Assembly: GCF_964194025.1 (NCBI RefSeq)
Contig: NC_134482.1
Location: forward strand, 43,772,001 to 43,836,000
DNA length: 64,000 nucleotides
Reading direction: 5' to 3'
Origin: Convolutriloba macropyga
Lineage: Eukaryota
Below, in pieces: positions 22,521 to 64,000 of this stretch (within the stretch, counting starts at the first letter, position 1; each line of letters starts with the position of its first letter). The translations under genes and the position numbers were made by a program. A model generated the notes under the pieces. The model did not search any database. It had not been told where the DNA came from and saw only the letters and a list, made by a program, of their open reading frames with translations.

Positions 22521-22647
22521 ACGTATCTGAAAATGGAAATAGTTAGAATACAATTAGAGAGAGGGAGAGAGAGAAACAAAATTATTGTATGGGGATAACT
22601 CGCGAAATATACAAAAGGGGTAAATGTTTTATGAAGACATAAATTGC

Positions 22648-30070: not shown

Positions 30071-30139
30071 AGTGCTGTTTTTATGTTATTAGAATTAATA
30101 CCTTTATGAGCTACTTTTGTACCTTCAAGGCGTTTTTGT

Positions 30140-33348: not shown

Positions 33349-34030
33349 GACTATATCAAGATGTTTGTTCACTAATGTTTAAAAAACTGATAAAAAAAGA
33401 AAAATTTGCCCACTTTCTTCCCTCGTTCCAATTTTGGCGATATCACTATTGTGATCAGTAACATCAAAATTGCCGGGCTCGCGTAGTGCAACAGATGTGT
33501 GATCGTCGCGTTTTAATACCACCAACCTATGAGCCAAAACGTTACATAGGCCATCGGATTTGTCTTAGACATGTTCTGCGTATGGCGTTTTTTCGAAAAT
33601 TTAAACTGAACTGCCTTTTTGGTAGGCCCTTTTCGCTCGAATTCGTCTGATTGCAGAAAACGAGGCTCATCACCTTTGGAGCTGATTGCTCTCTATCATT
33701 CGCGTCACGATTAAATTTGCACATAGTGCGTTCTACCTCTTCATCGCTGCGGTAGTTGTTCCAGTGGTCTTCAGGTAAGAGCTCATTGGGCGTTACTGTT
33801 TTTTCGTCTATTTAGCATTACGAAACATTGTCAAGCCCTATGTCAGTATTTTAAGGAGATGTACTGCTATTGCGGAGCGGACTATGTGCATGACAATCAA
33901 AGTGTTATTCGAACGGCGAGATCTTTGCTGTTTTTTGTTGACAAATGCGGAGCTGTTTTTTATATTGCTTTAATTGTATATTGACTATATCAAGATGTTT
34001 TTTCACCAATGCTTGAGAAACTGATACATC
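33349..34030 (-). repeat. ~630-bp unit, copy 2, followed by a partial restart of the unit
   Basis: Homologous to 29452-30070; GACTATATCAAGATGTTT occurs at 33349 and again at 33983 (period ~634). Confidence 0.75.
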
Positions 34031-34149
34031 GAAAGAAAACTAATGTCTTTCTTCAGCGGGAAACAAAACAAAATTACAAAGAAACGATGACTGATTTTGT
34101 TTTGGTATTCTAAAGAGCAAAATTGGTTTTACAATCTTTTCTTAAATAT

Positions 34150-41634: not shown

Positions 41635-44600
41635 TTATACTTCAGTAGAAAAATTCCTAAAGCCTCTTACTTGTCTATCTATTGGAACACGTTCATGCAG
41701 TTTGACCACTTCGCTGCTTAGTTTTTCCTTAAACTTGTTTTTAGTTTTCTCTTTTCGGATTTCAATTGGAAAATTATTCCACTTCCTAGAAAAATTTCTG
41801 ATTAGTGACCTGTCACTCCATTTGGATTGGCACTTATTCTTTGGAAAAAACTGGGCAGTTCTGCAGTTTTTGGTCAATTCGTACTTTTCAAGAATCCTGA
41901 AAGAGGAGTTTTTGGTTTCTCGACTACTCTCTTTATATTGTGAGAGGAGGTCAAAAAATTTAAGAAGACAAACTTTTTTAATGAAAAGCTCTGCTGGTAA
42001 AATTTTGTCTTTCAGTAACAGATCTCTTGCACTGTCAAACTTTTTGCACAGGTGGCAAACCTTTATTCCCCAATTTATTTGTTTATTAACTCTTTGAAGT
42101 GACATAACCGACAACGATTGAAAAAAATTGCACTGAAATTGAGATGGGACAAAACAAGTGATTTAAAAAAGACCGATTCTTGCTTTTAGTGGTAGAAAAT
42201 GTCTTACTAAATAAATTGACCTAATAGCATTTGCCATTTTTGTTAATGTTTTGTTCAGCTGAATGTCAAAATGTAGATTGTTATCAATCATTATACTTAA
42301 ATAACGACAACTTGTTTTTGGCTCAATGAAAATTCCATTATAAAGAAATTGTTCAATTTTTGATTCCCCATTTTTTGAAAAAACCACAATTTCTGTTTTA
42401 CCTCTGTTTAAATTTAGCATCTTTTGTCTCATATAACTGTCAGTACTTTCAAATACACTGTTAATTTCGCATAAGAGATTTTCATCGGATTTGGAATGAC
42501 AAATAATGCATGTGTCATCTGCAAACTGTAAAACGTCCTCTCTTTTTCTCATTTTTTCAGGGAAGTCGTTGATATATATTAAAAAAAATTAAAGGTCCGA
42601 GAACTGCTCCTTGAGGTACTCCGTGATTTATTGTCACCCAGTTCGAATATTCAATGCCGTTCTTCACGCATTGTTTTCTGTTAGACAAAAACAATTCTAG
42701 CATTGCAATTGATTCCGTACTAAATCCATATTTTGTAATTTTTTCGAGAAAAATTTTGTGAGATATTGAGTTAAAAGCTTTGGCTAAATCCACGAATACA
42801 CTAACAACGGTTTCGTTTTCTTCTAACAAACTATTCACTGATTCTGTCATCGATATTACTGTGTCATTCGAAGATTTTCTTTTCAGAAACCCAAATTGAT
42901 TTTTATTGATTATTTCATAATTTTCAACATGTTCTAGCATTTGTTGGAGCAAAAGTCTTTCAAAAATTTTCGCAAGAGTCGGTGTAACTGAAATTGGTCT
43001 GTAGTTTTCTGCTTCCAGTGGAGCCCCTTTTTTGTAAATTGGAGTTACATATGCTTTTTTATATATGTCAGGAAAAATGTTTTTTGATATACATTCGTTT
43101 ATTGCAAACTGTAGATGTGTTCCAATAGACATTTTGCTACATTTGAAGGACCATGTAGTAATTGATCCAGGACCCGCTGCTTTGTTTTGTGGTAATTGAT
43201 CAATTACAGTAAACAGTTCTTTTCTCGTTATATGTCTGAAGGAAAACTCAATTTTGTCAAAAGCAAAGTCCGGTAGCTCAACTTTTTCTGTCTTTTAAAA
43301 AATCTTGGTTGAACCGAATTCTATAAATTTCGCCATTTTTATCCTCGTGTTTTATTTTTGTTTTAATGAATTTCCACTGTTGTTTTGAACGGGGAAGACT
43401 TTCGAACAATTTCTGTGAATAATTGTGACTCGCTCTTCTAAGTAGTCTGTTTGTATGGTTTCTTATTCTTTTGTATGAATTATATGTGTCAACTTCTGCT
43501 TTTTTCTTCCAAATATTGAAAAGCCTGTGCTTTTTGTTGATTAGATTCAAAATTTTTCTGGATAACCATTTCTTTTTCGTTGATTTTGATGATGGCTCTC
43601 CTATTTTGATGGGAGCTATACTATTCAGATTATTTTCAAACATAATTGAAAATTTTTCAAAAGTTGAATTTGCATTGTTTTGTTGATACATGAAACTCCA
43701 ATCAGCGGATGCAATTCTTTTGTTAAGATTAGCTCTAGTAAATTTGCTAGTATCCCGGTAAAAAATCGCGTTTTGTTGTCTTCATAATCAATGTCCAGTG
43801 ACGAAAGGAAAACTTGTGTAAAGTGATCACTTCCAAATAACTGCTCGATAACAGTTGTATCAAGAATTTGGTGTTTCGTTGTTAAACAGTGATCAGTTAG
43901 TGTTTCCTGATTTCCATTTGTCCAGGTTGGAGTATTTTTAATTACTATCTCAAGCCCATTGTTGGAAGCAAAGTCTGTCAATAACTTTTTCACTTTGTTT
44001 GAAAAAATTGATGTTATAGTCTCCGAATAGTATTACATTATCAGTTATTGAATATGCGCCTGAAATTTCTGATGTCAATTCTTCTAGAAAAAATTCGCCC
44101 AAGTTTTTATTGGAACAAAAAGAAACGTTATCTAGAAGTTTTTCCTCAAACGATGCTTGTAATTCAAGCCATAGTGATTAAAAAAAACTTCTGTTAATAG
44201 AGTTGAGATCATTCCGTATTTTATAATTGAACGTATTTGGTACCCATATCCTACTCCACCACCTCTCGTTAACTGCGTCAATTTTGATTTACTTTGAACA
44301 AAGTGGTGATTGTTGCTTGAAAAATTTAAGGGTATCTTCTGATTATCGTTTATCCATGTTTCAGTAACAATAAAGCATGTTTGTCTCTTCTGCTGCTGCA
44401 AAAAATCCGAAATCTCTTCGTGTTTGTTGTTAACGCTTCTAATATTTGTGTATACAAAACATGGATGCAAGTTTGCATTTGCCTTATGTTTATCGTAGCT
44501 TTCGAATGTGTGTAAATTATGTAAATTGGGCCCTGGATTAGATTCGACATCACCGCAAAGTAAAATTAAGTAGGTTATAGTTTGGAACTGATATATTAAG

Positions 44601-44659
44601 TTTAAAGACCAAAATCCAAGACATACATTATCAACCATTGTTTTGTTTTTGAAAATCAA
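41635..44659 (-). pseudogene. LINE ORF2 (2A - APE endonuclease - reverse transcriptase), multiple frameshifts
   Basis: Consecutive ORF-track fragments 44132-44659, 43625-43993, 43278-43691, 42557-43132, 42163-42552 and 41635-42114 carry the domains in order. Confidence 0.9.
44528..44551 (-). other. 2A-like StopGo ribosomal skipping motif DVESNPGP
   Basis: LILLCGDVESNPGP is a perfect D(V/I)ExNPGP match immediately N-terminal to the APE domain. Confidence 0.88.
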
Positions 44660-44853
44660 ATGAATTGAAGTGCTTGGGTGACAATTGATTGATCACTTAC
44701 ATTTTTTATTTTCTGCAAGAAAAAACAAGCTAAAAAACACGAGAAATTTCCAATAGGAAAACATATGTTTCAAAGTCACCCAAACGCATTATATCCCATA
44801 TGACCATTTCTGTTCCAGTTTTTGACATTATCTATGGGCTTCTTTTTGATTTG

Positions 44854-45726
44854 TCACATAGATACGTAGCTGACAGAAGGTTGATACCCCACACTTGATA
44901 TGTAATTTTTTAAGCTAAAAACCATTTTCTGGATTCCATTGTGATTAGGATGAATGCCATCCATTCGCATATCTACATTTTCCAAATTATAATCCAGAAC
45001 TTTTATGTCGGTATTTTGAAACTCGCCGCGTAATTTATCTGCTATATCGTCTAAAGCCCGGTTAAATTTGTTTATTTCATTGTTGTTAGTTTCGCGTCCA
45101 AAACTGCCGTTTATGAATTTGGGTAATTTACAAATCGCTGCTTTGTAAGGTTTTATTTTATTAACGCATTTCAAGATAACGACTCCCAACTCTTTAGCGG
45201 CATCCTCTCCTGCCGTACCTTGATCAATGAAATTATGCCCTGTATGAATAATCAAACATTCTGTTTTTGTTGATGGCGCATAATTGTCAATGATATCATT
45301 GATGTCTTTTATTGTCGAAGATGGATAAGAGTGAATGGCAGCATCAATACTGATGTCATTTTGGCGAAACAGTTTGTACGAGCTGTCAGAAATAATTAAC
45401 TGTTTTGTGAAACGAGGAACAAACTTTGGATAAAAACGACGGTTGACTGTAGATTTTACGACAGCTTTTTCTGCTGTTCTTTCGCTGATTAAATTTGATA
45501 TTAATTTATCATTCTGAGTCCTCAAAAAATGAATCTCAGATTGAGCTTGATTATAAAGTTCTTTCTGATGTTCCAATTCAAGCATAAGTCTGTCCAATTC
45601 TTGGTTATTGTCTTGATTCTTGTTTGCTAAGTTAAGTGACTCCCTTCTTTGATTTCTTAGTTGCATCACCTCGCTTATTAGTTTCTCTTTTGTCCATTTC
45701 GACAAACCCGAAATAGTATCTGTCAT
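44854..45726 (-). CDS. LINE ORF1 protein: N-terminal coiled coil plus SGNH/esterase-like domain
   Basis: Open 290-aa ORF; heptad-rich N-terminus; SGNH-like blocks LIISDSS, IHSYPSSTI, LIIHTGHN, DGIHPNHNG. Confidence 0.8.
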   Translation of the reverse strand: MTDTISGLSKWTKEKLISEVMQLRNQRRESLNLANKNQDNNQELDRLMLELEHQKELYNQAQSEIHFLRTQNDKLISNLISERTAEKAVVKSTVNRRFYPKFVPRFTKQLIISDSSYKLFRQNDISIDAAIHSYPSSTIKDINDIIDNYAPSTKTECLIIHTGHNFIDQGTAGEDAAKELGVVILKCVNKIKPYKAAICKLPKFINGSFGRETNNNEINKFNRALDDIADKLRGEFQNTDIKVLDYNLENVDMRMDGIHPNHNGIQKMVFSLKNYISSVGYQPSVSYVSM

Positions 45727-46209
45727 CTTGATATCTATGCTTAAGGGTGATTTGGTTTTAGTTATTCGTGCATAAACCAGAAAAAAAAGACTCGCCCTGA
45801 AAATGACACTATTTTAAATTAAAAGTTAAATTGGTTTGGTCTCACCAGTTTGAAGTCCAGATATAGAATACCCAATAATTCGGTTTAATTGTTGAAGAAA
45901 AAAAAACTTGTTTGCTTTATCGCAAAAACAAAAAAGTCTTTGTCAGATAACGTTCTCAATGATTGGAAGCAGAAAAAAATCTATCAGCGTGTTCTTTCAC
46001 ATAAATTTACGCTGCTGACTTTGCTTTTGACTAATTGACGTTTTTTTGAGGATCTTTCACTGCGTATTTGAGGATCTTAGAAATAGCGATAAAATTTAGC
46101 TATTCCTAGAAGATTTCCGGTGAGTTTTTCTACTGGAAATGTAGCAGAGTAAATAAAAGAAAGCGGGACAATATGGGGATTCAATGGATCCCCGGAGATT
46201 TAAATTCTG

Positions 46210-47033: not shown

Positions 47034-48018
47034 TGTTACTGCCCTTCACAGTTTACCAAATACTCTCATTTTGAGAGCATCACTAAATGTACAAATTTTG
47101 CATTTTTTTGACATTGAGAAATTTTAATTAAAGCCGCCAGTCCACGTGATTGTTTTTGGCACCATATCAAGTTCGTTAAATTGTCGTCTAATTTTGTATT
47201 GAATGCATCACAATGCTCTTTGTTCACGATACTTAAACGACGGGGTTATTCTCGAGACCACATGCATAAACTGAGAATTCAACCTCTGGTTCTAATCTTG
47301 TATATAGTTAAGTATTAAAGAAAGTTAAATGCTAATATGAATTAATAAGTTATGTTAAACAGCATCAAATATGAACCGAGCATTAAGGGATAAAATAGTT
47401 AAAGTTATTAAGATTGAGATAGTACTAGTTAGCACAGGTTGAAATATTCTAAGTTAACTTGTAACCTAGATAGAATTTAAGAGATGTTAATTTATAACTT
47501 AAAGAAGTTAAGCTGAACTTACCTGATTTCCAAAATTGTGCTAAAATAATACTTTCTGACTTAGAAAGTTTTTAGTTAAGAACTTGTCACAAAATAATCT
47601 AAGTTAAAATCTATCTCAAGTAAGCTGAGATTTAAGCAAGGGAGCAAAACGGGAGTATGATTTAAATCAGAAGTTATCGGGGACCAAATTGTGCTGGTCG
47701 TTGAGCGTGCAAGCTCGTTTTATGCTTGCAACCACGTGGTTCTCTAGTATCCTATTGGATAGAGATAGCAGTGTCGACAGAGTTACCAAGGTTAAGTTGG
47801 TGTTCTCAAAGTGGCGTGACAATATCACGTCATGGTATTCTCAGTTTGAGTTAGTGATCTTAAAACAGTAGCTTATTCAAAACTACTTAGTAATTTGTTC
47901 ACACGTTAAAGTGGACTTTGTCCAATTTAGGTTTGTGCTTCACGCACTCAAAGGTATATTCTCAAAATAGCACTAAGATTATCGAATAGTGTTACTGAGT
48001 GTAGCACACTTCAGTACA
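47034..48018 (-). repeat. 3' LTR (~985 bp)
   Basis: Minus strand begins TGTACTGAAG directly after the PPT and ends GCAGTAACA (TG...CA with short terminal inverted repeat). The second LTR is not in the window. Confidence 0.75.
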
Positions 48019-48032
48019 TCCCATCCCGGTCC
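48019..48032 (-). promoter_or_regulatory. Polypurine tract (plus-strand primer)
   Basis: Minus strand GGACCGGGATGGGA abutting TGTA of the LTR. Confidence 0.7.
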
Positions 48033-50827
48033 ATATGTATTAATTCAAAACATCAAGTTTCAATAAATGAATAATTTATTTAGCTTAACTTTATATTAAT
48101 TAAGCATTAAAGGTTTATGAGGTTGATTACTTGGTTGAAGTTCTAAAATTCATCGTAGCTTCTTGTTTCTGAATTTTTTTCTTGAAGAAGGGTTGACGAT
48201 GTCCTGAGATACATATCTGTACAAAATAGTATGTCCAATATTTTTGGTGGTCGTCGTAGTAGACCGTTTGTTGTTTTTCTATAAAAGTTGTACTGTTAAT
48301 ACATCGGAAGCTGAGTATTAAGACAATATAGTTGAAGAACATACTGGTCTATTTAATGGTCTATATTGACAAGCAAGGCAAATGAACAAAGAGACTAAAC
48401 GAAGGCGCACAACACCATAAGGGTTAGTGTTGCTGAAGTAACTCCCCAAATAAAAAATGTGGTGTCGTAATTCATCTTTATTTGAGTACTGCTAATTAAT
48501 GATTCAATTGAAGTGAGCTTTAAAGCTATAGTTTAAAGAATTAATGTTTAGACTTTGTTGATTGTTTTGAATTATCTTCATGAAGTGATTAATATTGCTT
48601 TTTGTCATCAATTCAAAATAAATAACAACATTTTTTATTCTAAGTCTCCAAAGAATAGGATAACTTTGCATTTGAAGTCAGAATAATACAAGACAGAGAT
48701 CTTGTAAAATGTATCGTTAAAACTGATTTGTTTAGATATGTTTATTCATGCAGATTCAACATGTTCAGAAATTTGGCAATAATCTCTAAACCATTCGATA
48801 TCAACGCCTCCTTTAAAATATGTGTTCATTTTGAATGTTGTAGTAATTAAAGTTTTTTGTCAATAGCAATGGGGAGAATAAAGACGAATTAATCTTTGAA
48901 AGGAATTGACGGGAAGGTTCAAATAGTACTAAAACTATAAATGGCTGATGGCGCAAACGAAAATCTGTTAAGGAAATGTTGTAGCATTGTATGTAAAGAG
49001 TTATCGGTCCGCAATTTGGTCATCACAGAAATGTTGAAAAACTAGCATATTAACTGAAATAAGTGAGCGGTCGAAAATTTAGTTTATTTATGTTAAGAAT
49101 TTCTTCTGCATGAATAAGCTTTAGAATTTCAAATAAATCATACTCAGGAATTTGATGAAAATAAACTACAATTTCATTGGAATTTTTATCTTGCAAGAAT
49201 AAGATAATCTCTTGTAACTCAAATTTCCAATGAAATGATAATGGGGTATAGAATTTATTTCCAACTAAGCACGTTTTCAAAGTTTTAATACCTTGTGATT
49301 GAATAAATTCAGCGAGATCACAATTTGTTTTGAAGCAATTAACGTCTACTGAAAGATTGTAAGACATTAAGTAGATTATAAAATTCGATTGAACAACTTC
49401 GTGTTATCTATAAGTTATAAGCAGGAAAAATTGTTGAAGATAAAACAATAGCTTTATTGAAGCGAAATGAGTGATTTGATAATAAGAACTGACTCATTGC
49501 TCACTGTAAATTGCGAGTAAGAGCTTAATCGAAGAATTAATCTAATTGACTAATAATAAAGCGTAAAAACGAATGTGTTTAACGAAAAATTTTTCTCACT
49601 GCTTAGGAAAGTAGAACGAGTAATGAAGGAAGTACTGAACATCAACAACCACAAATTCGTCTATTCCATTCCTTGAATGCTCAACGTGATGAGCGGAGGA
49701 TGTGGAGTTGATGCTTCAGATTTGTTATATCCAGTTGGAGCTCAATAATCCGTTGTTCGATCTGTTGAGAGCGTTGCCTTTCGGTCAGAAAGATTTGCTG
49801 TACCTGATAAGTAAAGGTATCAAGCTGAGGAGTGAGGTTCATTGTGATATTGTCAAATGGGACTTGCATGGTTTGACCTTGTAGAGTGTGATTAATTAGT
49901 CAATAAGATCTCTTGTGTGACAAGTAACCAATGAAATTGAATCTATTGGTATTGAGTTGCAACTGGTAGATTAAAACGGAGTCGTAGTTTGGGTCTCCAC
50001 TAAAACCAGGGGTTTTAGTTTGTATTTCAGCGTGATTTTTTTAGGCGGTCTTGCAGGGGGGTAGTTGTGTTATGAAGAAAGTTTGGTCGTGATGATTGAG
50101 TAGTTGTAGTGTTTGCTAATACGTTGGTTGCTGTACTGTTTGTCTTGGTTATATTTAATTCTAGCGGTGTCGCTCGTTTAAAGGTCTCTCTAATGAATTG
50201 TTTACGTGGTAGTTTCTTTGCAATTGTATCCGCGGTTTTAGTTCTCCTTTTGGATGATGTAACTGTCGTTGATGAATTTGCACTAGTTGCTTTAGTTTGT
50301 ACTGCTGAAATCTTGATAGCTGAGAGAAAAGTTGTAGATGGAATAACGTGAGTTGTGGGTTGTACTAGTCGGTCAAGTTGTTTAACTCCAGATTGGGGTG
50401 TAGAAGTTGATTGTGCCTTGTAAACGGGCCAACCACTTGAAGGTTCCTTCTGAAAGACTGGTATCAATTCGTTAGGGACTGAAAAAAGTTCCTGAAATAT
50501 CAAGTATTCTCTACTCTTATTCTATTTTAAGAGTATTTTTTATGTTATTTTGCAAGTATTTTCTATTTCTTTTTTTTGTATTCTCATTCAAAGTACAACA
50601 AGAGTAAATATGAATTCAGTCTGTATTATATGATCATCATATAGTTTGATGATATTAGAGTGATAGGGGAATTATTCCTATACTGGAGACTTAGGAAGAT
50701 TTCTGTTTTTGTCTCTACTATTCCCATCATTTAGGTTGGGATAACCACTTTTATTTTCTTGGGTTAGAGTTCGCATTCTATTTTTGACTTAAGGTGGGCT
50801 TTGAGTAACACTAGTTGCATTTTCATA

Positions 50828-52951
50828 TTATGGGACCTGCATTGTCCGTTCTCTATTTTCATTAGTGCTATTAGTTGCTGAGTTAGTTGCTTGATAGATA
50901 GAAGTCAGAATTGGGACCGACATTAAATCAAATGAGGCAACAAAGAGTGCTTTAACAAAGTGAATAGATGCATCTGTAATTTTGTTATGTTGCATTGCTC
51001 GAATTAAGCATAAGGCTATGTCGATGAGTAGCTTAATGAATAAGAAAGCAGCAAAGAATATTCCGCATCGCTCAATTATATATTGTATTTTGCGAAAGGT
51101 TTCAACAAAATGATTATTAAAGAAGTCCGGTGAAATAAATGAATCGAGATAAATTGTTCTAGAATTATAATAATTTGTTCCTGAAATATCTGAAAATGAT
51201 TCTCTGTTACCTAAAAATGATTTAGTAAAAAGCTTAAGAACTCCTTTCGTATTGGAGTTGAAATTTTTTGAATTCCAGAAAGCCATCATTTCTTTATATG
51301 TGTAGATAGAAGCCTGAATGCTTGCAGTAATTATATTCGCAATTTGCTGAATGACTATGTGTGGTTTAAAGATTGCAGGTCCTCTTACTTTTGTTATTTG
51401 TGGGGTTAGTTCAATCCATGAATTGTCATCGTCAACATCTAGCTGAAATAACTTTGAACGTTTATCAGAGCACAATTGTTCTTCGGCTTCAGTGAAGGTC
51501 TGTTTAGAAATCGGATCAACGAAATGTATTTCATCTTCATAGAGAATTGGTATTCGGTTATAGCACTTACTAAGAATCTGTAAGGTGAACGAAATCCAGG
51601 ACAATTATATAACCGGGCAAAATTGCCGTTTGTTTAGATAAACATAGTTCTGTTTCTTGCTAAGTTATATCCAGCTAAACGCGGATTTTCATGAGAAATC
51701 ATTAATGTGTTGAGAATAGTTGAGCGTTCTAGTTCACAGTCATTTCTTAATAGCTCTAGAGTAGAATTTTGAGGTTGCCGAAGATTTTTAAAGTGCAAAT
51801 AGTCAATTTTTGCTCCATGATGGGCTTGGAAATCAGTATTTTCATCAATTTGAAAATGCTTTGTATCAACTGTTTTTAAGCGTGATAGCACTGGTATCAG
51901 ATTTTAATTTGAGAATGGGCTCTCCAGTGTTCATATCGAAACCGTCACGAAGACAAATATACAGAGAATCATATGGCCTAGTGTATAATATTTGTGGATG
52001 ACTACATAAAGACTGTGGTTTTTCTAAAAACTTGGAACATAAAGCTTTGTAAATCAAAATCTGACTTAGCTGAGCTAAGTTTAGGAGCCTTTTACTATAT
52101 AGTATTTTTCATTAGCTTTAATCATTTGAGCGTCAAAAGTGCGAATCACAGTGAAAAGACAATTATTGGGTTCATCCCAAGTGTATGCAAATGGATCAGT
52201 AGATGTAGAATCGCAGCTTCCGGTTGATAAAGGACAAGGTAGAGGTATATTTTGTCAGTCATTAACTGTGCCATCTCTAAGGTTTACATTTAGGCTAACA
52301 TTTTGTATATATGATTTATAAGTGTAGTGTGTAATCCAACCTCGGGAGTTACATTCATTGTTTCCAGTTCCAACATCGCCTGAGTTAAAGTTTGAGAACA
52401 AAGATTTGTCAAAATCGATTTCTACTGAACAGGAAGAAGGGGAAAGCTTTATCTTTTTTCTTTCCTTTGCAAGATTGCATTTCTGAGCGTCAAGCTGATC
52501 AGAAGTAGTAATAGTATTATGTCTGGCATCTACGCCGCTTGAGTCAAAAAATGGCAAAACCAACGCAATTGCTATTCGGTTGCTTTACACATAGTTGCTT
52601 CTAACTTTACTTTATAGTTTCTTTGGTAAAGAGTGACTCGTGCTTGACTAGTGCCAATTTTAGCAGGGCGAATTTTGCAGGGTGCTACTTTGTAGAGAGA
52701 ATACATCTTGAGATATTTTTGAGCAGCCAAATTGGAAAACATGAAGGTTAGGAGCAGTTTTTTTCATAAATACGCACCTTCTCAATTGGTATAGCATCAG
52801 TGAGAGTCGTTAAGAGTAATAATGCAAGAAGCGTAACAAAAATCAAATATTTTGCATAGCAAGCATTGATAACAGAGAGAAAATCAAGAGGTATTATAGC
52901 AATCAGTTTAAGAAGCTGAGCAGAACGAACTTGGTTTCTCATGTAGGTCAT
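50828..52951 (-). pseudogene. Envelope glycoprotein, chuvirus-G / herpes gB-like class III fusogen, frameshifted
   Basis: Signal-like YLIFVTLLALLLLTTLTDA; Cys-patterned ectodomain PCKIRPAK..ARVTLYQRNY..EATMCK, GNNECNSRGWI, PLPC, DSTSTDPFAYTWDEPN, CELERSTILNTLMISHENPRLAGY, KCYNRIPILYEDEIHFVDPI; C-terminal TM IERCGIFFAAFLFIKLLIDIALCLI. Confidence 0.75.
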
Positions 52952-55623
52952 AAAATAACCTATTTTTGAAGGGAGAGGTTTCTTATCAGTAGGTTTTTCT
53001 ATAAAGAACTCGTCTATATTCAGTGACAGCGGTGAATGGTCGATGATTTTTTAACTTATTTCCGAAATTGATAGCTTTTCAGGAGGCTCTATTAAGTTAA
53101 GGTATGGACTTTCTTCAGGTAAACAATTATTTCTATTTATGACACATTCGATGAAGTGTGGTTGAGAATCGTTATATTCAAAGAGTATAACCAATCTTGC
53201 AATACGTTGAGCAATTTCAGATTCAATATCAGTTGCAACAGGCGAGAACATAGCTAAACAAAGTAACATGAATAGAATCAATTTGTAACTTACGTTGATT
53301 ACTTCGTCTATTGGTGGTGACTTTTTGATTTCTCCGTCTTCCATTTAATAAACGAAGACAGTTTAAAGTGCGTATAACAAATTCAAGTTAAAATTATCAG
53401 TGAAAGTGATCTGATATTTTAGCTCGTAAACGTGACTGGAATCATAGGCTACCTAAAATATGACAAAATTTGCGTTATTGTCTGATGTTGCAAAAAATGC
53501 AACTATTTTCTGTTGATTAGAAACAAAACACTTGTCAAGTGTTACAGTTTTACTTCCGAATTGCAATGCTTTCTGTAGGAGGAATATTCTAATATAAGAT
53601 AGAGGGTCGTAAACAAGAGCAGTGAGAACTTGTGTTTCAAGGGAAAGTGGTAACATAGATTAAAACTCTACAGTAAAGGGAGCTCCAATGATATCGAGGT
53701 TTATTTGCTCTCTATTGTTCAACTGGAAATGAAAACGTTCAATATGTTCGGGTTTATCAGGGGTCCAACAAACAATTATTTGTAAGTTTGGAAACTGGTC
53801 TTTAAAAAGAAAATTACAATCTTTTCTTTATATGAAATATACGATCGATCAATTCTGACTGACTTGTTATTATATTTCAGGATTTTATGCGGGATGTTGT
53901 AAGTACTGAAAGAAGTTGAGAAAGTTGTTCTTGAAGCCATAATCCAATAATCGTTTAGCGGAATATTCATTGATCGGTTGATGGTTCTAAAGCCAAACAA
54001 GGGACATTCGAAATATCTAAGTCAACTAAACTTGTAGAATGAATTTGGATGAAAAAACTGTTTAGTTGTTGAGGGTTATACTTTCTCCAGAAGACATCAA
54101 AAGGGTCTTTGTTAGAATTAATAGCAAAGAACACTACAGTTCTTACTTCGTTAGAAATTTGAAAACTGGTTAAGGTGTTTAGTGTGAGCACTGTTGTTTG
54201 GAATTCAACAAATTAGAAACTTTCTGAAATGTCATTTTTTTACTATGTTCAACCTGAAGAGTTATATACTCTTTCTGTAGTTGATATCTAGGAAATGAAG
54301 ATTTAGAATTATTACATAAAGACTGTGGTTTATTATAAAATTAGAACATAAAGCTTTGTAAATCAAAATCTGACTGAGCTGAGCTAAGTTTAGGATCCTT
54401 TTACTATATTATTTGTCATTAGTTTTAATCATTTGAGCGTCAAAAGTGCGAATCACAGTGAAAAGACAACTATTGGGTTCATCCCAAGTGTATGCAAATG
54501 GATCAGTAGATGTAGAATCGTAGCCTCCGGTTGATAAACGACAAGGTAGAGGTATATTTTTCCAGTCATTAACTGTGCCATCTCTAAGCTTTACATTTAG
54601 GCTAACATTTTGTATATATGATTCATAAGTGTAGTGTGTAATCCAACCTCGGGAGTTACATTCATTGTTTCCAGTTCTAACATCGCCTGAGTTAAACTTT
54701 GAGAACAAAGATTTGTCAAAACCGATTTCTACTGAACTGGAAGAAGGGGAAAGCTTTATCTTTTTTCTTTGCTTTGCGAGATTGCATTTCTGAGCATCAA
54801 GCGTAACTGAAGTAGTAATAGTATTATGTCTGGCATCTACGCCGCTTGAGTCAAAAAATCGCAAAACCAACGCAATTGCTATTCGGTTGCTTTACACATA
54901 GTTGCTTCTAACTTTACTTTATAGTTTCTTTGGTAAAGAGTGACTCGTGCTTGATTACTGCCAATTTTAGCAGGGCGAATTTTGCAGGGAGCTCCAATGA
55001 TATCGAGGTTTATTTCCTCTCTATTGTTCAACTGAAAATGAAAACGTTTAATATGTTCGGGTTTTTCAGGGGTCCAACAAACAATTATTTCTAAGTTTGC
55101 AAACTGGTATTTAACAAAGAAAATTACAATGTTTTCTTTGTATGAAATATACGATCGATCAATTCTGGATGACTTGTTATTATATTTCAGGATTTTATGC
55201 GGGATGTTGTAAGTACAGAAAGAAGTTGAGAAAGTTGTTCCTGAAGCCATAATCCAATAATCGTTTAGCGGAATATTCATTGATCGGTTGGTGGTTCTAA
55301 AACCAAACAAGGGACATTCGAAATATCTAAGTCAACTAAACTTGTAGAATGAATTTGGATGAATAAACTGTTAAGTTGTTGAGGGTTATATTTTCTCCAA
55401 AAGACATCAATAGGTTCTTTGTTAGAATTAATAGCAAAGAACACTACAGTTCTTACTTCGTTAGAAATTTGAAAACTGGTTAAGGTGTTTAGTGTGAGCA
55501 CTGTTGTTTGGAATTCAACAAATTAGAAACTTTCTGAAATGTCATTTTTTTACTATGTTCAACCTGAAGAGTTATATACTCTTTCTGTAGTTGATATCTG
55601 GGAAGTGAAGATTTAGAATTATT
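52004..55623. repeat. Internal tandem duplication in the env region; second copy has a ~1-kb deletion
   Basis: 52004-52684 matches 54313-54989; 53677-54312 matches 54987-55623; segment 52685-53676 is absent from the second copy. Confidence 0.9.
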
Positions 55624-55890
55624 AGTGAACTAGGATACCTGGTATATGTGTTGTGGAGATTTGTTGAGACAAGTGTTAGTCGGTGGTCACAATTTGGAAT
55701 ATTTGAAAATTTTTCTAACTTTTCTAGGTTATTATTTGAAAGGGGCAAAATGCGAAGATAGAACTTGGGACAGAGAGAAGGAGAGTGAGAGCGAGAGAGA
55801 TAGCAAATTTGATGATTTTTCGGGTGAAGGTAGTTTGTGCATCAATAGTTTGTTTGATACTGAAAGAATTTGCAAAAACTTTGACATCTT

Positions 55891-56280
55891 TCTAGGGCTA
55901 CCTTTTTTTGTCTATAGCCAATCTTAATACATGGGAGAAATTTTGATTTGGTCATTATTTTCTGACACGATATTCAAAAGTGAGCAAACTTGGCAGATCA
56001 ATAGCTGTTATGTAGACACGTTGTTTGAACTAGAAATAAGCGTCAAAAATACTTGAGACTTTCTAGGGCTGCCTTTTTTTTCTATAACCAATCTTAATAC
56101 ATGGGAGACAATTTAATTTGGTCAGTATTTTCTGACACGACATTTAAAATCGAGCAAACTTGGCAGTGCAATAGCTGGTGTGTAGACACGTTGTTGGAAG
56201 GAAAAGTAATTATCAAACTCTTTAGTATATTTATAGTAGATTTCTCCTTCTATACCGTATCTTAATACATGGGGAAAAAT
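55891..56280. repeat. ~171-bp tandem repeat (2 copies plus a partial) in the non-coding spacer upstream of the env-region ORFs
   Basis: TCTAGGGCT..CTTTTTT..TCTATA.CCAATCTTAATACATGGGAGA at 55891 and 56062; partial ATCTTAATACATGGGG near 56260. Confidence 0.85.
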
Positions 56281-57591
56281 CAAAAGATGTTGTTGTTCTA
56301 AGGCTAAACCTTCAGATTTACTAATCGCTTAAATGAATATTGTATGGGCAACTAGTAAATGTATGAGACAGCGAAAAACAAGTTGTTTTCAGTTAAACAC
56401 AATTTATCTTGGTTTTTTCTAAGCAAAAATGATAATTTCACCATTCTTCAAGTCCTTGTTATGAAATTGTGACAACTTTTAGGACGAAAATGAAAACTCT
56501 ACTCTGAACTTATTAATAATTATTATTTTTTATGTCATACGACGAACTTTCACTTATCTATCGCGTATAACGTCTAAAGGGCACCACTTTAAAGATTGGA
56601 AGGTAATGACTTAGAGAAGTTTCGTCTTTTCTTTAAAACTTTTGCTAACTCTCTTTCTTTTTAAAAGTCAGTTTGTTTATCAGGGTATATCTACTAATCA
56701 CAGATTTTACTTTCAAAATCTGAAAGTGTGAACAAAATTGGAATTGTTAATAAAAAGCGCGAAAGAAAATAAATTCAATAAATTGAACTTTTTTGGAATT
56801 TATATTACGGTATTTCTAATTTGTGTGTTGTAAACTTTTGCGAACTATTAGAATAAGCATGCAATTGAGCAATTATGTCGTCTGAGTTGTTGAGTGGATC
56901 AACTCAACAAGGAATAGCTCTTTCTGACAGTTGTGTAAGGTTTGCGCTTGGGTGACATAATTCTTACCTGGGTAATTTAAATTTGCGGTTAGTTATTTGT
57001 TCATAAGTGCTCTAATGTTTATTTTAAACATTGCTTGGGTCCTTAAGCTAGTAAAGTTAGCTATATTTGTTGACTATGTAGATTGCTTAAAGTGTGCGTT
57101 CCTGACAAAATGCGGTTTTACGTGAGTTAAATAGTTTGCAAGGGACAAATTCCTGTACTTAAGGTATTACTCTTAGATAATGTATTTGCTCATGGGGGAC
57201 TAGTTTGTACATAGTTTTGCTTTGGGTAACTTGTGTTTTCAGCGTTACTTTGTAATAAAAGATATGCGTAAATATTAAAAATGTATAACGGTTAAACATG
57301 TATAGAAGTTATATGTGTGTAACAGCTTGCAATATTGATTAATCGTAAACTTTGTGTAAGATTTGTGTTGAGTGGGCTATTTGCTTTTAGCCTTTAAATC
57401 TTGTCCACTACAGTTGATCTCTTTTTGCATAGTAATTTTCAAAGTCTAAATTCCAATTTTGTTCTTCTTAACTTAAACTTCTTCATCTTTCTAATCTTAC
57501 ATTATTCAACTTTCAATTTCAATCTCTTAGTTTTTATTCTATGTTAATTTTCTTAATTTTGTTTATCTTTTCATTTCTTATTTTCTTATCC

Positions 57592-57954
57592 ATGTCTGGT
57601 ATGCATGTATACTTCCTTGAGCCTGACCAGGACATACTGGATCAACTAAACTACGCTGAGGTGAAGCTCAGTCAAAGGGGTATTAATTTAGTTCCGGTTT
57701 CGGATTTTAAAAAGAGTGCGCGAGAGTTCTATTATAAGAGGTATGTCAATCAGGAAATTTGGGGACTCAAAGCTGCGGACTCGAAGTCGGAGGCATGTCA
57801 GCATTTAAAAATTTTCTTGGGGGACGAGGAGATTTGGGCGCTCGACCGAATAAGTGTCATGAGCAAACCGTGGAGGCGGCAAGAGCTAAAAATGGTGTCG
57901 GTAGAGACACTGGCGTTAGTGGACTTCTTGGGCTTGGATGTGAGTATTTGTTAA
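57592..57954 (+). CDS. Antisense ORF inside the Gypsy element, unknown 120-aa protein
   Basis: Open frame MSGMHVYFLEPDQDILDQLNY...FLGLDVSIC in a G-richer block distinct from the flanks; no recognised family. Confidence 0.45.
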   Translation: MSGMHVYFLEPDQDILDQLNYAEVKLSQRGINLVPVSDFKKSAREFYYKRYVNQEIWGLKAADSKSEACQHLKIFLGDEEIWALDRISVMSKPWRRQELKMVSVETLALVDFLGLDVSIC

Positions 57955-58053
57955 TATATTGCTCAGAATAACTGATTTTTGTGATTAGGCATTCAGGGGG
58001 CTCCAAGGAATGAGTTGTGAAAGGTTATAGAGTAGTAGAAAAAAGTAGGGGAA

Positions 58054-58334
58054 ATGTTTGTTAGCCAGAGTGATAAGGAGAGAAATTTTGCGATTTTAGT
58101 TTTTCCAAAAACTCTTTTTGGGAGATGGGAGTGGAATGGGCGTGGAAAGAGCAGGAAACATATGCTAAGCAGTTGTGGGCTCTCCATTTTGGATGGTGGG
58201 ATCTGGAATTTGGTCCCGTGCTCCAAAGGCCATACAAACTGTTGAGGGAGCTCAAGATTCCGGAGTGTGCGATCCTCAAAAGTGACATACTCTGGAGTAC
58301 AGTGTTAAATAATCTACTGAAGGACTTCCTTTAG
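58054..58334 (+). pseudogene. Second antisense ORF, probably frameshifted, Trp-rich
   Basis: MFVSQSDKERNFAILVFPKTLF joined across a T-run to WEMGVEWAWKEQETYAKQLWALHFGWWDLEFGPV...LLKDFL; same composition as 57592-57954. Confidence 0.35.
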
Positions 58335-58519
58335 GAGGAGTACATATAGTTATTGTTTAAACTTTTTTTGCATTCTTTGCGCTGATACTATGGGTTTGCG
58401 CGTTATATATTGATTTTGTGTATATATATATATTTTTATGGTTTGTTATATTTTTATGGTTTTGGTGCGCGTTGACGCTTTATTACAAAAATTATTAATT
58501 AAAGGAGATTTTATATCTC

Positions 58520-61500
58520 TTATTTCTTTTTTAGTTTATGTAGCAAGTCAGAAGGAATAGGTTCACCAAAGAATGTAGGTGCTCTTCGATTTCGCTGAGG
58601 TCTCCTTAAGACATTGTTTGCGTCTGGTAAATTAGATATAATTGTTGAGGCTGTAGTTGTAGAATTATAATGTGATGATGTGGGGCTTTTATGCGTTGCT
58701 TTGGGGAATAATTTACGTGCTGCTTCAAATTTACTAGCATTATCAGATGGGTTAGAATAACTTTCTTGCTGTGGGCTATTAGGTGAATACATATTTTGTA
58801 TAGGGTAGGAGGTTGAAATGCGTGGTGGTAGAAAATCAGAAGAGCTTGTGCCTGGAATATGTGTAGTGTTATCTACTCGTGTTTGTAGCGATTCTAAGCC
58901 TGAATTTTTGTTGGGGTAACCTCAACATTAAATGTTGGCTGTAGTGTAGTACTAGGATTAACAGTATGTTGTGTTTCTACTAAGGGCCACTGTGAAAAAA
59001 CAATACGTTTTGCACCGCTATGAGTGTTATATTTGGCTATAATATGCTTATTATAATGAGTATAACAATCATCAGTGTCGTCTGAAAATACATAGTTCTC
59101 AACTATCTCTTGTATTTTCTCTTCTTTTGGCTAATAAGGTACTATATGATTTCTACGCACGGTTTTTTTTTTCATTTGTTTTATCATGCTGTATTTCATT
59201 TGTAGTATTAGTTTGTTGCACTGTGTAAGGTCCTGAGCGTTGCTCTTGTAGCTTTTTGGATTTTAATAGTCCTTTAGAGTGACTCTTTAATAGTACTTTT
59301 CTTCCTTCATGTTTAGGCTTTCCGAGTTCAAATCTGTTTCTAAACTTGTGTTCTTTATTCGTAGTTTGTCTACATTTAGTGTAGGTTTTCAAATATATAG
59401 TTTGAAATGTACTATCTCGTTTTAACATTTCGTTCGATAATCTGTTTTGTAATAATTTCTCTATATTTTTGTTATTACTTCTATTGTTGTTTTCTTTATT
59501 TTTGTTGTTGTTTAGTTTCTTCACTATGCGAGTGTGGTGGTAGATTACTAAAATACTCTGATGTGCTTTTGTTTTGATTATCTCGTAGTAGTCCAAACTT
59601 TAGTGATAGGGGTATTTGTGGTTTTGTTCCGAATAGTATTTCATAAGGTGTATATCCTGTACTGTAGTTTACTGCAGTATTGTGTGAGAATGCAAATTTA
59701 TTAGTGTACTCGGACCAATTAGATCCACTTTGGCTAATAAAGTGTCTTAGGTAATTAGTCAAATGTTTATTTTGTACTTCTACTTTGCCGTTAGTCCACG
59801 GTGAGTATGCAATTCGGGGGCATAGTGTAATTCCCATTTCTTTTGTGTAGTGAACGAAATCATTACTAATAAAAGCATTGCCGTTATCATGTACTATTTG
59901 TTGCGGTATATCAAATGTAGTTATAAATTTCGCTAGTTGATTGACTATTTTGAGAGCGTCGGCATTCAGGATAGGGTATACTTGTATAAATCCAGAGAAA
60001 GCTTCTACGAGACAAAATCTATTTCATTTACTAAGTGGTCGTAGTGGACCTTCATGATCAATATGAAGTGTATGTAGGGGTATAGCTTCAAATTGTCTCC
60101 ATGGTTCTAAGGGTGCTTCGTTTAAGTGTTTGCGTGCTGTCTTATTATTTTGGCAGTTTAAGCATTCTAACATTATTATTTCAATCCATTTAAACATACC
60201 GGTTTAATCGCTTAACTCTATTATAAGTTGTGGTTTCTGCTCTGTGACCACTAAGTTCATGCGTATGCGCAACCTCGAATATTTAAATAAATAGTGAAAG
60301 TGGTGCACATATTCTAACGTCAAAAAAGCCGTCTTCACAAGGTTCAAAATAACAGAGTAAATCATATTGACTCTCTAGAAACAACAAGTTGAAATTATTT
60401 CTATTATTTTGGCATGCTTAAGATTGTTTAATTGTGTACTCTTTTTCTGGAGCTTTGCCTACTTTTAACCAATCTCTAACTTTATTTATCACGGAGTTGT
60501 TTACTTGCTCTTCATGAATATTATCAGTGTCAAGATTAGCGTTTTTACAGATTAGCATCTGTAACCTTAGCTATTAAATCTAATGTTTCTGTGTGGACAT
60601 CCTTTTCTGAGATGTTTCGGAAAGCTTCGGGTTCAATATGTTTCTTAAATTTTGTACGTCTAATATAGTCAGCTTTAGCATATTCTAATTGTTCAATAAG
60701 TGAGTTTTCAATATTATCTTCTACTAAGTCTAACCAATCTTGGTCATCATAACCTTCTCGATCATCACTTATTTCGGCTATTTCTTCAGTCACATATTTC
60801 GGCTATTTCTTCAGGAGAGGAGTAGTGATTGTCGAATTTACTAGTCAGTTCTGAGGTTAACTTCTTTATTTCATTTATTTGTGTGCCGTAGCGAACACAA
60901 TCAGAAAACTGTGTATAGCGTTACAGTGCTCATATATGTAGTCTGGTGCATCATCTACAATAAAGTCACCTTCATCGTTTATATTGATTAGTTTCTTACT
61001 TTCGCCTTTGACTTGAGCAATAATTGAATAACAGTCGCTAGCTGTTGCGTCCTTATCGTTTTTGTGCAATACAGTGTAGTTAACTTCTTTTCCGTTAATA
61101 TGAAACTTTATATCTTTAGGTATTACTTGATGTTCTAGCTGATAAAATTTAGCATCTTCAAAGGAAATGTCTTGGCTAAGAATGTCAGCGAACGTTAAGT
61201 TTTTGCCTTCAGTGTAAATAATTTGCAAGTTTTGAAACTTAGTTATTACTAATTGATAATTAAAGAAACGATGTGACAATTGTACGCGTCGTGACCAAAG
61301 AAAGAGAATTGGTCTGTGATCACAATAGAGATAGATTGGAGATGGGGATCCAATAACGTAAATTTCATATGTTTGTAATGCAGATATTATTCCGCATAGT
61401 TCTCTATGTTGAGGGGACATTTTTGTTCAGCTTTATCAAATACTCTTGAGTTTGCTGAAATCATGCGTTTTCTATCAGGGAAATCTTGTATAAGAACACA

Positions 61501-64000
61501 GCCTGTTCCTAATTTAGATGAATCGGCATGTATATGAAAAAGATAGTCATTGGAAAGAAATGCGTTGGAAATGTCATGACAGAATCTTTGTTTAAGATCC
61601 GTGAATATATTTTCGTGTTCTTGTAACAACTTGAATAGTGTTGAATCTTTAGTTAAGTCATATAGAGGTTTTGCATCTATGTGAATGTTTAAAATATAGG
61701 TGTGATAGAAACCCATCATTCCTAAAACTCTTAAAACTTCTGTTTTCGACTCTGGCGTTTTTAGGTTTCTAATATCATCTGTGCGCGAAGCAATAGGGGA
61801 TATTCCGTCTTTAGATAAAAAGTGTCCTAGAAATCTCACTTTTCGTAAGAAAAACATTGCTTTATCAGGGGCTGATTTAAAGTTTGCCTTTCGAAGCAAA
61901 GAGTGATACTCTTTTACTATTGTGAACTTTTCTCGTTTATCTTTAGCTTGTAATAAGTTGTCGTCTATGTATGGTATGGCTCGTTTTTGTTTTATAAGAG
62001 GTCCGAATGCATAACGCATAAGTTTGCTGAAGAAACTGGGTAATGGCTTAAGACAATAAACTCCTACTTGACAAGTGTACTGTCTGCCTCCTACAATAAA
62101 ACTTGTGACCTTTTGTGTATCTTCGGTTAGTGATACTCTATTATAAGCTGATGATAAGCCACTACTTTTGAAAAATAGTTCGAGTGATTCTTGTAATTAG
62201 AACGTTTAGTGGTTCAAGTGGCCAACTAGAATTACTTGTATCATTTGTGGAGTTTGGGTATCTAGCATCTATTACTAGTTTCACATATTCCTTCTGAAAT
62301 AGTATGATAAAATAATTGACAAACTAACTATTCACATCGTTGTTCTGATTGAGCTCTCTGATAATTCCAGCTTGGATTAATTCATCCATTAATTTTTCTA
62401 GTTTATCTCTGAGATGAATGGGTGTTTTGCTAGGTCGCTGCTTTCTAAAGGTAGCGTCTTTCTTTAGGGGTAAATGAACCTTATGTTTGCTTCTACCAAT
62501 ATCATACTTATCATGTGAATAGACATCATTATCCTAAAGTATTATTTCTATTAACTCAAATAATTCATCGTCAGTCAAATTATTTTGTGTGAAATCAAAA
62601 TTATCCAAACATTTATCTAGATATTCTGGGTCCTGAAAAGTATTCTATTTTGCTCAAGTACAAAGTCGCTGACGGCTTTATTCATGATTCGGTTGCTTTG
62701 TAGTTTATCCCTAAATATAGGAAACTGGTCGTTGACTTTAGGTCTACATAATAATTTAGCTTCGGTAGAGAAGTCTGTTGCTACTTCTATCTCATCTTCT
62801 TTGCTTTTTTCTATTAACTCACTTTCAATAATTTCGACTGTCTCTTCTTGTTCTAGCGTATTGGTTTCTACTCTTTGTAGTTTGTCAATATCATCTTTGC
62901 TTGTATACATATAGATAGCTATTCCTGAATTTTTAAATGTTTGTTCAATTAGAGAAGGTATCCCTCTCCAATCCATTCCGTCTAAACCACACGTTATTTT
63001 TGGCATTCCTATACAGCGAAAAATTTAGTCCTAGTGCGTGATCTCTCATAACAAGAAGCGTTGCTTTGCTTGTATCTGTTGTTGGTTTCTCATAGGGATT
63101 ATCCTTAGTGACCACATTATATACTAATCTTTTATCTGCTCTGAAGGTTATTATGTCACCTGTAACAAAGTTTCTACTTTTACAGTAGTCCTTTAATACG
63201 GGTATTCTTTTGCAAATTGTGTTGGCAAAGCCTTTTCTCATTTCTGCATCTGATGACATTGTGTGCGCTATAGGCATATTAGAGTCAAAAATTGATTGGG
63301 AATGAAAATCTACATATCTATTGCATGAATTACTTTGAATTTACTGTTGTTCTTGTAAATTGCTAACTACTGTGTTTAGTATGAAACAACTGTTATAGTC
63401 CTCACTTTCGTTTAGTTTTGTACTTGGGAATTCAGTACAGTTTTTGTGAAGTCAGTACCATGAATATGGGTAGAAATTCTTCAGATTGAGGACAAAGTGT
63501 GTTCACAAAGACTAGGTCAGTATTTGCAACATTAATATGAGGCATGAAATATGTTCCTGGTGGAAATAGGTTATGACTGGATTGCTTTTGCTTCTGCAAT
63601 TGTGTTCTTTTCTGTTGCAGAAAGATCGGATGAGCTATGTTTAAGATCGGTTAGGCAGTCATTTTTGTTATGTATGGATAATCTTCGCATAGTTGAGTGA
63701 TCCGTAGCAAATTAAGTTTCTTTCAGTTTTTAATTCTACTGCGGGGATATCGAAGTGCAGTGCTTTTAGAATCAAATGACAAAAATCATTAACTATTATA
63801 TTCTGTCTCTGTTCTTTAGTAACGAATGCTTTATGAGGGACTGTATATTTACCGTCATTTTCAAAACTAGACTGGATAGTTGTATAGCCAAGCATTCTGA
63901 TTGATGAACCAGTGTATGTTTTTGAATCACAATTTGTACTATGTAGACGCAAATTTTGTCCAAGGTTTACTAGAGCAAGGTATGTAGGATGATTGATGAT
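58520..64000 (-). pseudogene. pol: Gypsy pol (protease, macrodomain, RT, RNase H, integrase) with stops and frameshifts
   Basis: Protease C-term NIIVNDF; RT YIDD (61960-61971), FFLRKVRFLGH; RNase H IHADSSKLGTGCVL, RELCGII, LYCDHRPI, TFADILS; integrase HHCC remnants, HIDHEGP, IVHDNGNAF, YSPWTNGKVEVQNK, GYTPYEILFG, SGPYTV; C-terminal LRRPQRNRRAP. Confidence 0.92.
62900..63320 (-). pseudogene. TARG1/OARD1 (DarG-related) macrodomain embedded in Pol between protease and RT
   Basis: SIFDSNMPIAHTMSSDAEMRKGFA...RLVYNVVTKDNPYEKPT...MRDHAL / MPKITCGLDGMDWRGIPSLIEQTFKNSGIAIYMY parallels TARG1 LAHCISEDCRMGAGIA...YIYYLITKKRASHKPT...MPRIGCGLDRLQW...FEATDIKITVY; one frameshift near 63010. Confidence 0.85.

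Follow-up and report, generated by a model that had tools for sequence, protein, structure and literature searches.

An eleven-gene Ty3/Gypsy element of Convolutriloba macropyga with a TARG1-type macrodomain in Pol and a multi-allelic antisense gene

We analysed a 64,000-nt stretch of the Convolutriloba macropyga genome (G000:C16:43772001-43836000 of a 1.18 Gb assembly; hereafter, the window), whose right-hand part, from position 47,034 on, had been read in a preliminary description as a giant retrovirus-like Gypsy element. The overall best explanation of our data, which we hold with good confidence, is that this region belongs to one Ty3/Gypsy (Metaviridae-type) endogenous retrovirus with a complex genome of 11 genes. 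Its copies are units bounded by long terminal repeats (LTRs) and flanked by 4-bp target-site duplications (TSDs). They share one gene order, their genes are under selection, Pol contains a TARG1-type domain, and an antisense cassette exists in seven types.

In the window, Pol lies on the minus strand over 58520-64000 and runs beyond the window end; Pfam placed pieces of reverse transcriptase (RT), RNase H, integrase and SH3 at 58520-62200. A matching LTR was found upstream of pol, 1.6 kb past the window end (G000:C16:43837602-43838327), 93% identical to the 3' LTR (49 of 724 positions differ), with a broken gag between it and the window (L001 2141-3497). The preliminary description had counted more than 17 kb even without gag and the 5' LTR; with both, the copy spans ~19.1 kb. 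It had placed the LTR and polypurine tract (PPT) at 47034-48032. The PPT does end at 48032, but the LTR starts at 47228, where homology to other copies stops, and 47060-47221 is local flanking DNA. Its distance of ~10.5 kb from the pol stop to the PPT is accurate for this copy, but 1.3 kb of it is a private duplication (95-96% identity to the source segments; not duplicated in six full copies), and in the family 9.1-9.8 kb separate the pol end from the LTR, as measured in the 21 copies (of 38) for which 10 kb included both anchors. Both LTRs of the window copy are shortened, its primer-binding site (PBS) is gone and nearly every gene is broken. It lacks a short TSD; a ~170 bp direct repeat flanks it instead. 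This repeat has three copies, all on C16 (window 47060-47221, C16:43838329-43838506 and C16:43877155-43877345), the third lying 39 kb off with no piece of the Gypsy element beside it.

Genome searches returned 681 candidates by LTR and 395 by RT, and the best 40 of each were scored. All six LTR-bounded copies are colinear with the window and measure 17.1-18.7 kb. Five have an exact 4-bp TSD and the sixth has one with a single mismatch; the LTR termini are TG...TA in three copies, TG...CA in one and other variants in two. LTR pairs, found in 7 copies, are in direct orientation. The family LTR is ~815-820 bp long, and the pairs of the six copies other than the window's are 1.1-6.6% apart. A TGG-starting tract is conserved 2 nt after the 5' LTR and a PPT is present; a search found no tRNA gene cognate to the tract at this PBS position. 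Tandem ~39 bp repeats of variable number lie between PBS and gag (L052-L071) and are deleted in the window copy. In a test independent of the accessory genes, we took the other 39 RT matches and examined the 10 kb that follow each, save one (L012/L013) whose sequence was already included, which left 38. A conserved non-coding block, the A open reading frames (ORFs) and the env start were present in 38/38 and the env body in 37/38, with internal rearrangements in at least 5. Because LTR-pair divergence is low and many copies retain open frames, we call the family young and recently multiplying in its host. The preliminary description's decayed copy is thus an apt account of the window copy, an older, dead member, but not of the family.

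The family order is gag, pol, antisense gene, conserved non-coding block, variable spacer, A1, A2, A3, env, a coiled-coil-like frame, B1, B2, membrane peptide, PPT and LTR. Gag (~456 aa) has one CCHC knuckle. At the end of gag a slippery heptamer, present in 23 of the 24 copies that could be anchored among 27 examined, precedes pol, which is in the -1 frame. The pol stop and the env start are separated by 3.6-4.6 kb and four genes, and four more genes come after env. At the A1/A2/A3/env junctions the stop overlaps, sits 3 nt from, or abuts the next start. The Ser/Thr-rich coiled-coil-like frame has no ATG, and an acceptor-like TTTCAG stands upstream of it in 22 of 23 open copies. A1, A2 and A3 are paralogous (20-30% identity), B1 and B2 likewise, and the two sets match each other weakly (probability 56%, E 1e-4). 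None of the 12 accessory proteins tested had a Pfam family at cut-off. Matches to A2 in the ESM Atlas were all unnamed (0.91, low recognition), and the 36 matches among A3 relatives all had at least 68% identity.

We estimated the ratio of nonsynonymous to synonymous change (dN/dS) by pairwise Nei-Gojobori comparison of open copies only. Of 45 stretches, 35 were usable for each of A1, A2 and A3, 18 for env, 27 for B1 and 34 for B2; the macrodomain and RT were compared in 16 of 27 stretches, gag in 9 copies, the coiled-coil frame in 23 and the membrane peptide in 32. Ratios were 0.12 for gag and RT, 0.22 for the macrodomain and 0.30 for env; 0.19, 0.18 and 0.31 for A1, A2 and A3; 0.19 and 0.25 for B1 and B2; and 0.29 and 0.18 for the coiled-coil frame and the membrane peptide. 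Shifted-frame controls gave 1.38 and 1.0. Masking singletons lowered the ratios, as expected if singletons represent post-insertion decay; on shared changes the macrodomain ratio was 0.08. All genes tested, the extra ORFs included, are under purifying selection.

The macrodomain-Pol of the preliminary description was borne out. Against human TARG1/OARD1 (PDB 4j5r), the Pol segment that separates protease from RT scores E 2.7e-20 over 124 aligned residues, other macrodomain chains reaching 7e-4 or worse. Pfam did not detect the domain in the window's broken pieces and gave a sub-threshold match in an open copy (E 0.006). The K84 and D125 columns (numbers mapped by counting along the alignment) hold the same residues as TARG1; we take D125 to be its catalytic aspartate. 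Strict patterns recovered the lysine motif in 22 and the aspartate motif in 20 of 27 5' halves. K84 is the catalytic lysine of TARG1 (PMC8501950), an enzyme that strips ADP-ribose from proteins and from DNA/RNA ends (PMC11088682). The macrodomain occurs in eleven related Pol proteins, in some of them degenerate. In an RT tree built on 61 rows after removal of 37 near-identical ones (no named clade references), all carriers fall in one 13-row clade with support 93, whose sole non-carrier is N-terminally short. The same TARG1-type macrodomain (31%, E 1e-14) is present in P0134, a 2197-aa picorna-like polyprotein with helicase and RNA-dependent RNA polymerase domains from a public run, and 29 phage records also match it.

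The glycoprotein gene had been assigned to class III, and Pfam agreed: Monjiviricetes_fusion (PF24664) matched at 50831-51604 in the window (E 1.9e-14) and, in an open family copy, with E 3.4e-36. By these matches, env is a predicted member of the class III (chuvirus/rhabdovirus-type) fusion family. It is ~900 aa long in the family, with hydrophobic segments at 22, 136 and 155 in the N-terminal part and at 763, the C-terminal membrane segment, and is stop-free in most of 61 scored genome matches. Its 33 relatives are unnamed and range down to 34% identity; comparison by sequence with solved chains found nothing. The same env family also occurs in P0110, a 2481-aa Gypsy polyprotein with gag, pol and env in one frame (33 cluster members).

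Two antisense ORFs had been reported from the window. Coding on the opposite strand was upheld, but the sequence features indicate that the two are most likely exons of one gene, which is multi-allelic. Thirty-six of 39 copies, drawn from all seven cassette types, share the codon position of a GTRAGT donor (background 0.0006 per base). As acceptor, automatic picking chose in 26 of 39 copies an AG that lies in frame 138-186 nt further along and is followed by a Phe codon; the same site is visible in 7 more. In P0152, a natural protein, both antisense parts are in one frame, joined at the predicted splice point, and a GT-AG intron of 69-72 nt occupies the same position in 4/4 copies of a sister family.

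The antisense-region DNA of the window is common to only 7 of 38 copies; in the others no more than 27% of it is covered. Seven groups can be distinguished among the 38 anchored cassettes, with 8, 5, 8, 4, 5, 1 and 7 members, and the proteins they encode are homologous. Between the six types scored, exon 1 shares 34-62% identity, with proportions of nonsynonymous and synonymous differences (pN and pS) of 0.41 and 0.76, whereas pS within and between types is 0.067 and 0.068 for RT and 0.072 and 0.073 for env. Nor do the types cluster on the trees: the RT tree required 12 changes against 10.9 when shuffled, and the env tree 10 against 10.9. Because exon 1 is this divergent while the backbone distances are equal within and between unclustered types, the comparison points to seven old antisense types shuffled freely over a near-uniform pol/env backbone.

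AlphaFold models of exon 1 (pLDDT 61) and P0152 (pLDDT 56) were all-helical at low confidence, and fold searches with them reached best Z scores of 3.1 and 4.0, with no viral match at E 0.001. An ankyrin-leaning lead for P0152 in the ESM Atlas (0.91-0.92, fewer than 170 shared features) was not backed by the fold searches and was dropped; these searches assigned the antisense protein to no fold or family. An antisense profile search gave 24 proteins, of which the three looked up were all unnamed; no metagenome locus was found for P0152. At G000:C7:55066000-55090000 (L073-L075) a decayed family copy carries at least 12 tandem antisense cassettes with a period of ~1.29 kb. We rejected this array as a silent donor library, as its units are decayed and all best match one type, that of the window. 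Smaller antisense-cassette duplications occur in L002/L003, L023 and L077.

Comparison with the sister family, in the same genome, separates core genes from those confined to the large family. It is 12.5 kb long, with Pol 62% identical and, in one copy, LTRs 100% identical over 519 nt. It has gag, macrodomain-Pol, the antisense gene, a 760-aa env (gB-type) and a homologue of the coiled-coil gene (C-terminal); its macrodomain keeps both catalytic columns in the one copy examined. A1, A2, A3, B1, B2 and the membrane peptide had no match in 4/4 sister-family copies. The core common to both families is gag, Pol, the antisense gene, env, the coiled-coil gene and the macrodomain; the direction of change is unrooted.

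By LTR, TSD, domain order and RT, the family is a Ty3/Gypsy member, complex-retrovirus-like in organisation only. Its Pol order is protease, RT, RNase H, integrase (Pfam in an open frame, with a protease motif upstream). Among solved chains, its RT is closest to Ty3 RT (E 1.7e-35), followed by Pr125Pol (3.5e-22) and the next at 1.2e-19, which puts it nearer Ty3 than retroviruses or caulimoviruses; the close homologues are all unnamed. The complex retroviruses of the Retroviridae are not matched, since the RT is nearest Ty3 and env is class III rather than class I, and Troyka has CG...CG termini and a 3-bp TSD where this family has a TG start and 4 bp. Chary and Hayashi describe Ty3/Gypsy elements that carry a gB-type env, the HSV/gB-type 'ancient errantiviruses', as widespread (PMC13524379). 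The complex invertebrate retrovirus lineage proposed in the preliminary description is supported, the accessory block being present in 38/38 copies, but such an env had already been described. Those elements also have a Ty3/Gypsy pol, the order gag-pol-env and a class III env related to the chuvirus type, and are multicopy and young. The screen that found them looked for a compact three-ORF layout with env by pol, which the large family does not have; it capped gaps at 1 kb (or 5 kb of downstream annotation) and regions at 10 kb. The words 'macro', 'accessory' and 'antisense' are absent from the available text, and 'macrodomain', 'OARD1', 'ADP-ribose' and 'antisense' from the available supplements (PMC13524379).

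Each module has a precedent. The planarian giant Gypsy Burro is also large and env-bearing, with captured host-interaction domains and accessory ORFs, but it exceeds 30 kb, encodes a single polyprotein of ~4,900 aa in which a gypsy-Env-like region sits between gag and pol, and carries apoptosis/ubiquitin domains, the available text mentioning no macrodomain (PMC6431247); the present family has 17-19 kb and separate gag, pol and env. Tor elements of Oikopleura are env-bearing LTR elements, some with an internal env promoter after pol that serves as a model for the A/env block, but have a three-gene layout, with no macrodomain or antisense protein gene in the description available (PMC4402516). 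Fish epsilon-like endogenous retroviruses (Basta et al. 2009) include macro domain ORFs; these are Retroviridae with additional ORFs, the macrodomain class being unstated in the available text, whereas here a TARG1-type domain is in frame in Gypsy Pol (PMC4977317). TARG1/OARD1 and bacterial DarG are of the same macrodomain class (PMC8501950, PMC11088682), which is here embedded in a retroelement polyprotein with an altered glycine loop. Captured enzymes are known from an orchid Gypsy with an AlkB demethylase, a fixed eraser read as counter-defence (PMC9289625), and from the ORF3 of bdelloid LTR elements (PMC5408684), in both cases different enzymes on separate ORFs. The antisense ORFs of plant and fungal elements (Grande, RIRE2, Retand, Boty) also lie on the opposite strand between pol and the 3' LTR with their own promoter, but no intron or multi-allelic swapping is described in the part available (PMC7264820). 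There was no positive test of a sequence relation between our antisense gene and known antisense genes. Spliced antisense genes exist elsewhere, HBZ of human T-lymphotropic virus 1 (HTLV-1) being one. Literature searches combining macrodomain, LTR retrotransposon and gypsy returned nothing, and in the open literature searched we found neither a TARG1 domain inside the Pol of a Gypsy element nor an antisense cassette that is both spliced and multi-allelic; Repbase and GyDB, which lay outside the search, may list the family. The combination of modules did not turn up in that literature.

Table 1. Features of the window copy (window positions) and location of the sister family
Feature	Location	Strand	Remark
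Flanking host-side repeat, ~170 bp, outside the element	47060..47221	.	Second copy abuts 5' LTR, same orientation
3' LTR, its last ~25 bp missing (family LTR ~815-820 bp)	47228..48018	-	
Polypurine tract	48019..48032	-	Same tract before 3' LTR in 6/6 full copies
Small membrane-peptide ORF, ~42 aa in family	48398..48532	-	Partly matched in window
ORF B2, 108 aa in family	48507..48829	-	Broken in window
ORF B1, 105 aa	49050..49367	-	Open in window; B2 paralogue
Ser/Thr-rich frame, C-terminal coiled-coil-like, ~274 aa, no ATG	49684..50521	-	Broken in window
env, predicted class III (gB/chuvirus/rhabdovirus-type) fusion glycoprotein	50681..53344	-	PF24664; several stops and frame changes in window
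ORF A3, 103 aa	53348..53656	-	Stop abuts env start codon; broken in window
ORFs A1 (109 aa) and A2 (103 aa)	53666..54312	-	A3 paralogues; broken in window
Private 1.3 kb rearranged duplication	54313..55624	-	env piece 52003-52686 + A1/A2 region 53677-54314
Variable spacer with 170-bp tandem repeat	55770..56770	.	Window version common to 13/38 copies
Conserved non-coding block between antisense gene and A/env block	56780..57440	.	In 38/38 copies; candidate internal promoter region
Antisense gene, predicted exon 1	57592..57939	+	
Antisense gene, predicted 160-nt GT-AG intron	57940..58099	+	
Antisense gene, predicted exon 2	58100..58334	+	Frame broken in window
Pol C-terminal part: integrase (H2C2, core, SH3/p58-C) and tail	58520..60350	-	Broken in window
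Pol RT and RNase H	60875..62620	-	Broken in window; closest solved chain Ty3 RT
TARG1/OARD1-type macrodomain in Pol, protease-RT interval	62895..63295	-	Split by frame change; limits approximate
Pol N-terminal part (protease region)	63450..64000	-	Continues past window end, then gag and truncated 5' LTR
Sister family, very young	G000:C7:38282001-38294526 (L091, L087)		Also L088-L090

Elsewhere in the window, a decayed non-LTR retrotransposon lies on the minus strand at 42557-45813, with a GDSL/SGNH esterase ORF1, RT and what we take to be a 2A-like peptide. Two host genes are on the same strand: a long open frame for NRDE-2, a nuclear RNAi/splicing factor (5717-8794, Pfam E 9e-46), and a multi-CCCH zinc-finger protein (20904-22553) whose C-terminal part contains a 27-bp tandem repeat. 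Duplications with spacings of ~2.0 kb and ~3.9 kb occupy 10900-15160 and 29444-34054.

We propose the following life cycle. LTR-driven genomic RNA would very likely yield Gag and, via the -1 frameshift, Gag-Pol. For A1-A2-A3-env we slightly favour translation of a single subgenomic RNA by coupled stop-restart, the RNA likely starting at an internal promoter. The antisense gene is very probably transcribed from its own promoter and spliced, and its intron is proposed to survive because it is never on the packaged strand. Cell entry and an anti-host-defence enzyme, both named in the preliminary description, are roles that we infer for Env and the macrodomain. Env would probably act as a class III fusogen carrying particles between cells, presumably from soma to germline. 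The macrodomain, being inside Pol, would be packaged with RT and integrase and either cut out of Pol or kept on RT inside the particle. As a probably active hydrolase, it would strip the element's proteins, or RNA/cDNA ends, of ADP-ribose added by the host; the chances that it thereby shields reverse transcription and integration from poly(ADP-ribose) polymerase (PARP)-type defence seem to us evenly balanced. The antisense product may be a helical protein of ~200 aa in contact with a variable partner; its old alleles would be shuffled among copies by template switching and kept by frequency-dependent selection, a last step that is tentative.

The window copy taken by itself, with its private duplication, truncated LTRs, missing PBS and, where a short TSD would be expected, a long flanking repeat, could pass for a chance nest of unrelated elements or an assembly artefact. 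That explanation is refuted by the colinearity of 6/6 full and 38/38 RT-selected copies on many contigs; public contigs from two runs (one study) also cover 30/30 bins of the 9.5 kb 3' half. We consider it practically eliminated. The family might instead be an intracellular retrotransposon whose Env and accessory proteins act inside the producing cell, in membrane targeting and particle trafficking, with the macrodomain only an ADP-ribose reader. Such a lifestyle is compatible with the unusual ~175-aa N-terminal extension of env under weaker constraint (dN/dS 0.49) and with the degenerate macrodomains of some relatives (P0034, P0039-41). A full-length ectodomain under purifying selection, an env open in 18/45 stretches and catalytic columns kept in both the large and the sister families argue for particle transfer and an active enzyme, and make the purely intracellular alternative improbable.

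The antisense alleles are harder to judge. Our preferred reading, balancing selection on a host- or self-recognition protein, is held with a confidence a little below even. Close behind it comes the possibility that the cassette types are neutral alternatives, recombined from older sister lineages and doing one housekeeping job such as controlling transcription or exporting RNA, roles suggested for the antisense ORFs of plants. Neutral exchange would account for dN below dS between types and within older ones (0.15 in T1 and T2), and for a homologous gene at the same place in the sister family; conserved flanks would permit it. It fits less well with the coexistence of seven or more types (1-9 of the 39 copies per type) on a backbone of ~7% synonymous divergence, when no other element gene is so polymorphic; a non-exhaustive search identified no donor family, and the sister-family gene is far more distant.

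Several observations weigh against the overall explanation. Synonymous divergence between types is saturated, and dN below dS marks old alleles without proving positive selection; dN/dS is ~1 within the two youngest types, on very few changes. The RT tree is nearly unresolved (1 starred branch), and only the env tree (8 starred) firmly forces reassortment. The glycine loop of the Pol macrodomain departs from that of human TARG1, the protease motif is of a variant form in 21 of 23 scored copies, and the class III assignment of env is Pfam's only. Copies were picked by similarity to the window RT, best 40 only, so env-less or cassette-less derivatives are under-sampled.

The most far-reaching interpretation, an undescribed complex invertebrate retrovirus lineage, independent of Retroviridae, with a counter-defence kit, is in our view unlikely as a whole. 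Its kit would comprise a particle-borne ADP-ribose eraser inside Pol together with spliced antisense alleles, ancient and freely exchanged, that balancing selection on the element's side maintains as a specificity locus, either a host-factor antagonist or a means of self/superinfection exclusion. If it is true, PARP-type ADP-ribosylation restricts LTR elements in invertebrates. A TARG1 domain within Pol makes it testable whether ADP-ribosylation restricts LTR retroelements, and on which substrate, and the multi-allelic antisense cassette offers a natural experiment on diversifying conflict from the element's side. By its size and spacing, the family would mostly be missed by the published env screen. 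With eight selected genes beyond gag, pol and env, it indicates that an invertebrate Ty3/Gypsy element can reach complex-retrovirus organisation.

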